Below are positions 61,115 to 63,127 of a stretch of 64,000 bases of DNA, piece by piece. The DNA is from Candidatus Poribacteria bacterium (GTDB taxonomy: Bacteria > Poribacteria > WGA-4E > WGA-3G). Below the pieces are notes generated by a model. The model saw only the letters and a list, made by a program, of their open reading frames with translations. It did no database searches and was not told the DNA's origin. The stretch is taken from positions 192,001 through 256,000 of the forward strand of contig OZ219752.1 of assembly GCA_964291315.2 (NCBI GenBank). Direction: 5' to 3'. Positions within the stretch are counted from its first letter, which is position 1, and each line of letters opens with the position of its first letter. Position numbers and translations under genes: made by a program.

Positions 61115-63127
61115 CTAATCTTCGTCTGGAGGCACGATATCATAAATGAACCATATACCTTCCACTTTTCGCATTTTGACAGATGCCTCTGGAGGAGATA
61201 ACATCTGTGGCAACTTCAACCGGAAATGGAATTCATCCCCTACATGTTGATGGTTCAATACCTCCACCTCGCTGAACGCCAGACTGAGCTGCTCGCGCGA
61301 CTCTTCTGGGATGTCCTGACTTGCAAGCTCTTCCATGGCACGCCCTATTACCATTGGGTGCAGCGCATCTGAGTCAAGATTCTTAAGTGCTGTCACGAAA
61401 GCGTTCATCAAATCTTCTGCAGATTTGTATGAATGGGTTGGAGCTTCTTCTTTCCAATCCTGCATCTGCCCCGGTTCAACAGAGATTTCTGCCAGAAAAC
61501 CGTTGATGTTCCGTTGCTCGTTGAACCAGCTACCGGTAACCCCCAACTTAAAGGACTGCCCCTGCGGAAAATAATACTCAATGACGCGTCTATCTTCAGA
61601 TGGAACGTCCCATGCAGAGATAAGCGCCCCTTGTGGCGCTCCTTTCGTAGGGAGTTTGCTATTGCCATCATACAGATCAAATGACCCCATGGCTCCGGCA
61701 TCTCCAACTTGGAGTGAGATAGTGAGCCAACCGCCGTTTTCAAATGCTGTCGCATCAATCTCGACAACAGTATAGTCTTGATAGCCGGGTTCTGGAGTCC
61801 GAAAGGTACTCAAGACTTTCTGCTCCGGATTGTCGTTGGTAAGTACGAGTTTCAAAACGTTGGTCTTTGGGTCATCTGCTTTAAGAACAGAATCCCAATC
61901 GATGGACAAAGGTACCGAGGTATCTTCACGGAGTCCCGGGCGTTTGCCCGCTAAAGATCTCTTAAGAAACATTCTGTAGTGTTCATTGGGCTGCAGCCTG
62001 CTTAGTTCATTGGTCGGCAGCCTGCCCATCAGTTCAAGCTTTGGTGAGATAACCATCGAATCTGACGGGGAGTGCTCCTTCCAACCTTTCATGATCACTT
62101 GGATCAGTGGGTGCGTTTTGTCAAACTGCTCGAACCCCTGATGAAATCTCTTTTCAACGTATGCTTGCTGTTCGGGTGTGCGTTCTAATGTGACATTCGA
62201 CACCCAGATGTTGATGAAATTTTCGTTCAAGAATTCAATAATTCGGTTATTGGAGAGGACACCTGCCCTCAGGCTTTTGCCGCTCCCTCAGCACGCCTCA
62301 TCCGCAAGGGGACCGTCTAAAGAGATGGCGTGAATAGGTTTCACTTGCGTCTGTGCCATCTCCAATGCCTCTTCCGGGGATGTCCAATTAATCTGTTGTG
62401 ACTTGTAGAACCGTTGTATGAGTAGACGTTCAGCTGCTTCTTGGGTAATAGATTCTACGTATTCGACATCTGGCAGGAAATCTCTCGTCCCGGCACGGAG
62501 TGCCATCTCGGAGCAAAAACCTGAATCGGTGCCGAAGTAATTTTTGTCTTTCTCTTTCTCGCGTTTAACATCAAAGTTTACTATGCCTCCGGGGACGTAC
62601 ATCTCGAAAAAAACGACTTTCTCTTCGACTCGGTCAATCACAAGATGTCCTGTAAATTGCGAAGGAGTAAACCGTCCATCTTTTAGTTTGAACTCCGCAT
62701 GAATGCGAAACACAATGTCAGCGAATCTGTCGTTGTAAGCACGCAGGCATGCCCATAAGCCAGATGAGTCTCCCGAGAGCTGTAAGTTTGGATTTGGGTG
62801 CAGTTGCCTGAGCAGGGTCATCACGCCTTCTTCTTTAACTTGCCAGAGTTCGCCAACCGCAATTGTCTTATCAGGCAGAAAATCTTGGAAAACCGAGGCT
62901 GGATACTGCTTTTCTGGTTCAGCAACGCGCAAGTTTGCCAAGGTCTCCCAATTCACGTGGAAATTGAACACGGTATGCTCGATCGGTGCAATGGACCCCT
63001 TCACTAATACCTCTGACGTGCTGTCAAGCTCAAGTTTGATTGTGTTATTAGCTGCCGAGTGGTTATCGGCATTCAGTTGTCCGTTCATCATAATCAAGGT
63101 CAGAAAACCGAAGGCTAAGATTTTCAT
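61115..63127 (-). CDS. Selenoprotein N (SELENON)-like secreted selenoprotein, 670 aa, Sec at codon 280 (TGA at 62288-62290)
   Basis: AGGAGG RBS and signal peptide; FRIHAEF, FTPSQFTGH and GPLADEAC-U-GSGKSLR...LNENFINIW match SelN FRIHAEF, FSPAQFTGH and GALDDQSC-U-GSGRTLR...LNESFISTW; the two track ORFs are in frame with no other stop. Confidence 0.88.
62255..62287 (-). promoter_or_regulatory. Putative bacterial SECIS element
   Basis: 17 nt after the UGA: stem GAGGGC-[AGGU]-GUCCUC with a G-containing apical loop starting after 23 nt. Confidence 0.7.

Follow-up and report, generated by a model that had tools for sequence, protein, structure and literature searches.

Does a short RNA hairpin that directly follows an in-frame UGA in a bacterial gene related to selenoprotein N (SelN) act as the signal for inserting selenocysteine (Sec), and is the gene that carries it a eukaryotic gene that came to be read by the bacterial factor SelB? 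Both questions are raised by a stretch of 64,000 nucleotides (nt) from contig OZ219752.1 of a Candidatus Poribacteria genome (positions 192,001 to 256,000; the whole stretch is called the window here), in which the SelN-like gene lies on the minus strand. In this work we document the structure of the hairpin, its conservation, the selenium machinery of the genome and the way in which the protein runs unbroken through the UGA. We conclude that the hairpin is very probably the apical stem-loop of an ordinary bacterial Sec insertion sequence (SECIS) and the Sec signal of this gene, with SelB binding and Sec insertion expected from the known biology of SelB and SECIS elements.

On the minus strand, an open reading frame (ORF) from 63244 to 62288 closes with ...GPLADEAC and then TGA. 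Past the UGA the same frame reads GSGKSLRAGVLS... / GSGKSLRAGVLSNNRIIEFLNENF... and runs to a stop at 61115. Homologs start at a Met aligned with 63127 and a GGAGG (63139-63135) stands 7 nt ahead of the ATG at that position; the gene was therefore taken as 63127..61115. To follow the UGA in relatives we used two collections of DNA copies. A scan of GTDB genomes gave 367 confirmed stretches, the best 80 of which correspond to 66 loci, mostly from Candidatus Poribacteria, and a peptide-anchored search of these loci recovered 106 complete copies plus one truncated where its locus ends. A metagenome scan with a degenerate pattern that accepted TGA, TGC or TGT at the Sec codon gave 87 matches; four were unrelated (L101, L125, L150 and L158), leaving 83 family members, and L104, which is disrupted after five codons, was dropped from later counts. 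The Sec column holds TGA in every one of the 106 complete copies from Poribacteria and in 82 of the 83 metagenome members, the remaining one (L097) having TGC. Five Cys-form relatives carry Cys at the column of the window's UGA, and the Cys forms align across it without a gap.

The reverse complement of 62252-62287, which abuts the TGA (62290-62288, minus strand), is GGGAGCGGCAAAAGCCUGAGGGCAGGUGUCCUCUCC. Re-reading of the sequence and folding with RNAfold returned the 36 nt after the UGA and the 6-bp stem with an AGGU loop claimed by the original prediction: a 5' arm GAGGGC (62270-62265), the loop (62264-62261) and a 3' arm GUCCUC (62260-62255). This hairpin forms in a 71-nt context and also with its 16 nt alone, which reach -7.7 kcal/mol (z = -2.85; 3 of 200 dinucleotide shuffles are as stable). 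We regard the hairpin as exceeding chance because of comparison, that is, the freezing of synonymous sites, the pairing kept among copies and a recoding test, and not because of the folding of a single sequence.

The consensus bacterial SECIS (bSECIS) of Zhang and Gladyshev, as given in the part of a 2026 review used here (PMC13188914), has a loop of 3-9 nt on an upper stem of 4-16 bp, a G at loop position 1 or 2 that is mostly followed by G or U, 16-37 nt between UGA and loop, and an energy of at most -7.5 kcal/mol. In the window, the loop of 4 nt sits on a stem of 6 bp and reads A-G-G-U, with G at position 2 and G again after it; it starts 23 nt after the UGA; and the energy is -7.7 kcal/mol for the 16 nt and -12.7 kcal/mol for codons +3 to +14, numbered from the UGA. 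The hairpin lies in the coding sequence (CDS), directly 3' of the in-frame UGA, a codon to which the Sec or Cys of homologs aligns. We applied the model to the family in a strict implementation, which accepts contiguous stems only. The real site passes in 148 of 165 unique sequences (90%), whereas 11 in-frame pseudo-sites pass in 0 to 11 of the 165 each (55 of 1815 in total, 3%). The loops of the 148 passing sequences are AGGU (73), AGUU (31), GGUC (29), CGUGC (5) and others (10), and the distance from UGA to loop is 23 nt in 109 of them, 24 nt in 31, 18-19 nt in seven and 31 nt in one.

Conservation in the Poribacteria copies is seen at the level of codon choice. Among 104 unique copies, the choice is fixed or nearly so from codon -1 to codon +11, with an entropy (H) of 0-0.3 bits at codons +7 to +11 against a background of 1.7-2.3 bits, and it is near background elsewhere. 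On the spacer side the counts are TGC 104/104 at codon -1, GGG 94/99 at +1, AGY 102/102 at +2, GGC 88/104 at +3 and AAA 98/104 at +4; in the hairpin they are AGG 101/104, GCA 102/102, GGT 66/66, GTC 85/88 and CTC 104/104. Unlike the near-invariant codons -1 to +4 (62278-62293) of Poribacteria, the spacer codons of a second group of relatives, which we call soil-type, vary freely. RNAalifold predicts the 6-bp stem GAGGGC/GUCCUC from 102 sequences, and 98.5% of the stem cells are paired over 98 distinct Poribacteria rows; sliding the partners brings the two-helix structure as counted to 36-73%. Three rows have A-U in place of G-C at one pair, at which eight G-U intermediates also occur, and where GUG or GAG at codon +10 disrupts the register, reading by hand shows that pairing can resume two bases further on.

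RNAalifold also proposed, in two groups, a 5-bp helix UGCUG/CGGCA around the UGA (Table 1). We rejected it as evidence: the peptide dictates three of its pairs, no double changes were found, and in the soil-type group 11 of 37 and 8 of 37 cells are open (19 in 37 rows), no better than shuffles. It is weakly supported and may be a mere consequence of the peptide C-U-G-x-G-K.

Beyond these copies, the same codon stretch carries other hairpins. In the soil-type group, 35 unique sequences from metagenomes that have Pro at +10, it folds into GAGRGCG-GGUC-CGCUCUC; with L094 and L111 included, this hairpin is 99.6% paired and has double changes in three of its seven pairs, a result reached by none of 500 shuffles. 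A third group, of eleven sequences, has GACCCUC-CGUGC-GAGGGUC, which starts 11 nt after the UGA and in which three pairs change on both sides. Three hairpin designs are thus found on one stretch of codons. The recoding test covered the 165 of 180 unique sequences that had at least 300 nt of flank, comparing codons +3 to +14 with 100 synonymous recodings of each, drawn with local codon usage. Real sequences are more stable (mean z -1.80), and 53% of the 165 fall within the 5% tail; in four control windows of the same genes the mean z lay between -0.39 and +0.11, and the tail held 2-11% of sequences. For the window's own sequence z is -2.45, two of 100 recodings being as stable. The retention of the hairpin in UGA-bearing homologs, whose failure the original prediction had named as grounds for giving up the idea, was therefore confirmed by the synonymous freeze, by the 98.5% pairing and by the hairpins of other lineages.

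The genome encodes what a bacterial SECIS would need. We found a full-length selB (328.8 bits, against a cut-off of 242) directly adjoined by a tRNA-Sec gene (anticodon tca), selA (588.9 bits) and selD, which bears an in-frame TGA of its own. Together with agreement on the four constraints of the bSECIS model, this selB, selA, selD and tRNA-Sec set upholds the proposal that the hairpin is of the bacterial SECIS type. Two more UGA genes of the genome allow a comparison. An FdhA-like gene (CSRAUHAP) has, after an 11-nt spacer, CGUUGCC-GGUCU-GGCAGCG (-10.1 kcal/mol), and selD has, after a 12-nt spacer, GCUCC-AGG-GGAGC (-5.8 kcal/mol); a small apical loop with GG or GGU is common to these two and to the SelN-like gene. 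The window and FdhA-like elements both follow a UGA at a short spacer with a G+C-rich hairpin and GGU in the loop, and they differ in spacer (17 nt here, 11 nt there), stem (6 bp and 7-8 bp) and place of GGU in the loop (positions 2-4 and 1-3). In design the window element appears nearest to this FdhA-type element, which presumably resembles the SECIS of E. coli fdhF.

Decoding would then proceed as in other bacterial selenoprotein genes. As the ribosome nears the UGA, SelB, loaded with Sec-tRNA(Sec) and GTP, would bind through its C-terminal domain to the GG(U) loop about 23 nt downstream and deliver Sec to the A site, so that a protein of 670 residues would be made in one piece. Sec would stand next to Cys (C-U), where the first helix of a thioredoxin-like domain begins.

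The read-through protein has an N-terminal hydrophobic stretch, MKILAFGFLTLIMMNGQLNA, which looks like a signal peptide, followed by a SelN-homologous region, a thioredoxin-like domain with the C-U pair, a beta-rich domain and a tail of about 110 residues. Pfam, NCBIfam and PDB sequence searches with it returned nothing at E<=1; a Pfam search with a mammalian SelN record found no family either, and the Pfam negative for the window protein therefore says little. A word-indexed search of 5.8 billion proteins gave 34 relatives, among which SelN-type matches reach E values of 1e-11 to 1e-15 and two, from a fish and a mammal, are named Selenoprotein N (P0030, E 1.5e-13; P0034, E 1.6e-11). Pairwise, the window protein and the SelN records share 26-29% identity over 262-310 columns (E 1e-22 and 1e-24). 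The fish record (29% identity over 262 columns, E 1e-24) is truncated at its own Sec codon, ending in ...GALDDQSC where the window has ...GPLADEAC-UGA, so that its Sec position coincides with the window's UGA. The motif around Sec is S-C-U-G-S in most relatives and A-C-U-G-S in the window protein. Judged by sequence, the protein is homologous to selenoprotein N, its Sec aligned with that of SelN; the assignment to the SelN type made by the original prediction is thus borne out.

AlphaFold, given 15 sequences, produced a poor model of the full-length protein (predicted local distance difference test, pLDDT, 51.2), which was set aside in favour of a model of residues 259-424 from 78 sequences, which is confident (pLDDT 91.1; predicted template modelling score, pTM, 0.84) and has a thioredoxin-like fold. 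The UGA falls within this one domain, with C-U between strand 1 and helix 1. Foldseek matched the model to DsbH-type thioredoxins, to AGR2, AGR3 and ERp19, and to UAS domains (E 7.6e-5 to 3e-3); a PDB sequence search found no solved SelN structure. The protein is probably a secreted or periplasmic thiol/selenol oxidoreductase. In some relatives an N-terminus of the extracytoplasmic function (ECF) sigma-70 type precedes the SelN-like region or the beta-rich domain (P0062, P0172, P0086 and P0024), and in P0092 the beta-rich domain is joined to an S9 peptidase; such fusions hint that the module may serve in sensing or signalling.

Several observations weigh against the reading of the hairpin as a SECIS. 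By itself the window sequence is weak evidence and its hairpin marginal: the -7.7 kcal/mol only just clears the -7.5 threshold, the 71-nt context is unexceptional (z = -1.16; 24 of 200 shuffles equally stable), and the exact 36 nt of the original prediction give z = -1.20, with 30 of 200 shuffles equally stable. Sixteen of the 164 UGA forms fail the strict test, several of them, by eye, with G-U-rich stems. Within Poribacteria, double changes occur in just one of the 11 pairs counted, six of which are in the hairpin, the covariation being thin because the element hardly varies; and the copies share ancestry, so that shuffle counts are not probabilities. The soil-type members L094 and L111 were added after their fit had been seen, and without them double changes are found in two pairs, not three. 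The peptide by itself favours a hairpin, since recoding of the L-R-A-G-V-L region leaves a mean of -7.0 kcal/mol, compared with means of -3.3 to -5.6 for the control windows. Finally, the sole Cys form with DNA, L097, retains a similar hairpin, CGAGCG-GGUC-CGCUUG; with z +0.67 against its own recodings and failure in the strict test (n = 1), it fits either a decaying SECIS or a by-product, as a single case. These last two points would suit a hairpin without function, left by the conserved peptide L-R-A-G-V-L, by codon bias and by gene conversion among tandem paralogs, for which the frequent tandem arrangement of Poribacteria copies is favourable. We consider that explanation very improbable: synonymous sites are fixed in the stem while flanking ones in the same copies are at background, the real sequence beats its recodings in the hairpin window only, distant lineages have hairpins with different sequences, registers and compensatory changes, and control sites pass the strict bSECIS test at 3%, against 90% for the real one. 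Another difficulty is that the minimum free energy (MFE) structure given by RNAfold for the 36- and 51-nt stretches is a competing long fold (-14.7 and -15.8 kcal/mol). The working SECIS might accordingly take up all 36 nt in a larger fold, either a three-part structure or a long hairpin with GGGAG/CUCUC, GGCA/UGUC and GCC/GGC pairings and a UGAG loop; the long fold is 93.0% paired over the Poribacteria copies, and a lower stem could explain the synonymous constraint on their spacer. This too seems quite unlikely. The pairing of the long fold is matched by 444 of 500 shuffles, its breaks are uncompensated with 34 of 98 cells open at one pair, it is just 63.1% paired in the soil-type group (slid controls, 48-62%), its apical stem of 3 bp is below the minimum of 4 in the part of the bSECIS description used here (PMC13188914), and RNAalifold does not pick it. 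The small GGC-AAAA-GCC side hairpin of the original prediction (85.7% paired, with 34 of 98 cells open at its closing pair) and its GGA/UCC basal pairing (91.8% paired), which the long fold overlaps, show no compensation and did not hold up.

Two further explanations would keep a role for the hairpin and do without SelB. In vertebrates, SELENON has a stem-loop at a similar position which, according to the parts of two sources used here, inhibits termination and stimulates Sec incorporation (PMC8704476, PMC12839072), and the window hairpin could likewise promote read-through of the UGA or pausing, as this element or viral read-through signals do. We give this little credence, since the loop has the GG(U) typical of SelB-read elements, as does that of the genome's FdhA-like gene, and a full SelB system is encoded. 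Moreover, an Rfam search of 60000-64000 on both strands at E<=10 matched no family, the eukaryotic-type SECIS of the 3' untranslated region (3'UTR) included, and so found no other SECIS-type element there; and no bacterial system of the 3'UTR kind is known in the part of the 2026 review consulted (PMC13188914). A genuine stop at the UGA, separating two adjacent genes with the hairpin serving termination or coupling, would agree with the way gene callers split the family here (among 150 listed relatives, 80 end in ...C and 17 start just after it) and with a TTG at 62230 that could start a second ORF. We find it scarcely credible: the frame continues and is gapless against the Cys forms, one confident thioredoxin-like domain spans the UGA, the TGA is held at its exact column in the two collections of copies, and the hairpin is followed by no run of U, with no intrinsic terminator called there. 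The apical stem-loop of a bacterial SECIS thus remains our preferred explanation of the hairpin.

The window's gene is not an isolated case. An exhaustive search of 1.84 billion cluster representatives found 612 relatives at E<=0.001, 345 of them at E<=1e-10. Among the 150 listed of these 612, the 80 that stop at the UGA end exactly at ...[D/E/Q][S/A]C before Sec, the 17 mentioned above begin just past Sec, and five read through as Cys-Cys. Database proteins P0002-P0014 show Gly, and P0015 and P0016 Trp, at the Sec column; as all fetched DNA copies but one (L097, TGC) have TGA, their gene callers probably use translation tables 25 or 4, while other gene callers split family members at the UGA. 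As far as sequence can tell, the family is large, broadly bacterial and almost always of the Sec form (82 TGA against 1 TGC in the metagenome scan).

We built an unrooted tree by a quick method from 74 rows: the window's protein, four other Poribacteria sequences, nine of eukaryote type, four Cys forms and 56 UGA-truncated relatives. The last were picked by a length of 255-340 residues and a ...C ending, others being excluded; three of the eukaryote-type sequences were named animal by source and the remainder were grouped with them by similarity. The nine group in one clade (support 100), which has a long stem. The window's protein falls with Poribacteria inside a separate group of UGA-truncated sequences from bacterial-style ORF calls, and the Cys forms are scattered, requiring three changes. 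Because the Poribacteria copies are nested among bacterial sequences, the gene is not a recent import from an animal host. The original prediction had seen here a eukaryote-type gene adapted to SelB; with a bacterial family of 612 representatives and the eukaryotes in a separate long-stemmed clade, that label is a misnomer.

The window's genome has a single SelN-like copy. Elsewhere, SelN-like Sec genes occur in tandem: L048 has five UGA copies in 8.3 kb, L057 has four, and several other loci have three each; the tandem arrays listed are L048, L057, L058, L054, L042, L049 and L067, from Poribacteria. In the same loci the main type is adjoined by a second Poribacteria subfamily (FYK[SF]AEIER..., WGVFDDESC-U-ASGKTLR), which corresponds to the second half of P0018. 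Around the window's gene, a promoter-like site (TCGATA-16-TATTAT with TG; 63174-63201, minus strand) stands about 47 nt upstream of the ATG, in a region where four such sites were found against 3.1 expected from shuffles, that is, not above shuffles. An ORF of 1253 residues on the plus strand (57240-61001) converges on the 3' end of the gene. Coordinates of the features are collected in Table 1.

Table 1. Features of the SelN-like locus and of related copies and selenium genes, with the basis of each assignment. Plain positions are those of the window.
Feature	Position	Strand	Basis or remark
SelN-like selenoprotein CDS	61115..63127	minus	670 codons + stop, one in-frame UGA; read-through translation
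UGA read as Sec (predicted), motif A-C-U-G-S-G-K	62288..62290	minus	TGA column conserved; aligns with Sec/Cys of homologs
Spacer, 17 nt, GGGAGCGGCAAAAGCCU, from UGA to hairpin	62271..62287	minus	synonymous sites constrained in Poribacteria
Probable SECIS apical hairpin GAGGGC-AGGU-GUCCUC	62255..62270	minus	RNAfold, RNAalifold consensus, pair counts, synonymous freeze, bSECIS test
Possible 5-bp helix UGCUG (62293-62289, includes UG of UGA) / CGGCA (62282-62278)	62278..62293	minus	RNAalifold
Second-subfamily copies	L073:1032-1529, L062:861-1358, L030:1635-2132, L025:1526-2023, L022:3661-4158, L014:1835-2332
FdhA-like gene (CSRAUHAP)	G000 contig C4, ~696-697 kb	minus	further selenoprotein gene
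selD	G000 contig C4:721940-722863	minus	further selenoprotein gene
selB/tRNA-Sec region	G000 contig C2:61507-63538		selB region

Set beside the consensus bSECIS, in the part of its description used here (PMC13188914), the window element is alike in lying in frame directly after the UGA; it differs in a short stem that barely passes the energy threshold, in the lack of a supported lower stem and in a spacer that in Poribacteria is also constrained in sequence, which the model does not require. The Sec redefinition element (SRE) of vertebrate SELENON (SEPN1) is likewise a stem-loop in the CDS just downstream of a Sec UGA, in a homologous gene, and its stem, loop and spacer all matter for Sec incorporation in the parts of PMC8704476 and PMC12839072 that describe it. 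The SRE is, however, accessory to a 3'UTR SECIS, SBP2 and EFSec, whereas the window element would presumably be the sole SECIS and be read by SelB; the likeness is one of position. In all bacterial lineages examined the hairpin lies on codons for (K-x-)L-R-x-x-x-L, and the animal SelN peptide conserved at that place is R-T-L-R-E-T-V-L; in the unrooted tree, moreover, the eukaryotic clade with its long stem stands among bacterial sequences. One could imagine that SelN is at root a bacterial, near-obligate Sec family from which the animal gene descends, and that the vertebrate SRE is what remains of an ancestral in-frame SECIS of bacterial type, retained in an auxiliary role once a 3'UTR SECIS had assumed the main one; we think this history unlikely.

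At the protein level, the window protein and eukaryotic SELENON share the motif [S/A]-C-U-G-S-G-[K/R]-x-L-R and a thioredoxin-like Sec region (for the window, in the model), with ER proteins among the nearest folds. Human SelN has the motif SCUG, and animal SelN has an N-terminal membrane anchor and an EF-hand calcium sensor, according to the part of a SelN review used here (PMC12839072). The window protein has no EF-hand (no Pfam hit) and, in place of the N-terminal membrane region, a signal-like N-terminus, and in the alignment the N-terminal region of animal SelN has no bacterial counterpart. It has in addition a beta-rich C-terminal domain and a tail, and its SECIS would be in frame.

A SelN homolog of Poribacteria may have been mentioned before in the SelN literature. 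In the literature searched, outside which most subscription journals lie, we found no paper describing a bacterial SelN; the text matches to 'selenoprotein N' that were inspected, in BSepDB and an AEM review, turned out to be 'selenoprotein name' and 'neighborhoods'. Table 1 of the 2026 bSECIS review (PMC13188914) inventories 119 prokaryotic selenoprotein families and does not include the SelN-like one; the review names SelD, GPX, deiodinase-like, SELENOW-like and MsrA proteins as families shared with eukaryotes. In a 2026 review of SelN, a term search found no word beginning with 'bacteri' or 'prokaryot' (PMC12839072).

As an RNA element the hairpin is therefore ordinary, being what every bacterial selenoprotein gene should have. 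The more interesting result is the family to which it draws attention: large, bacterial and homologous to human SelN, the product of a myopathy gene; without a match in NCBIfam or a place in the inventory of PMC13188914; and multiplied in tandem in sponge-symbiotic Poribacteria. With three SECIS designs built over one stretch of codons, it lends itself well to studying the co-evolution of a coding sequence with an RNA signal, and its bacterial members could offer tractable material for the structure and chemistry of SelN.

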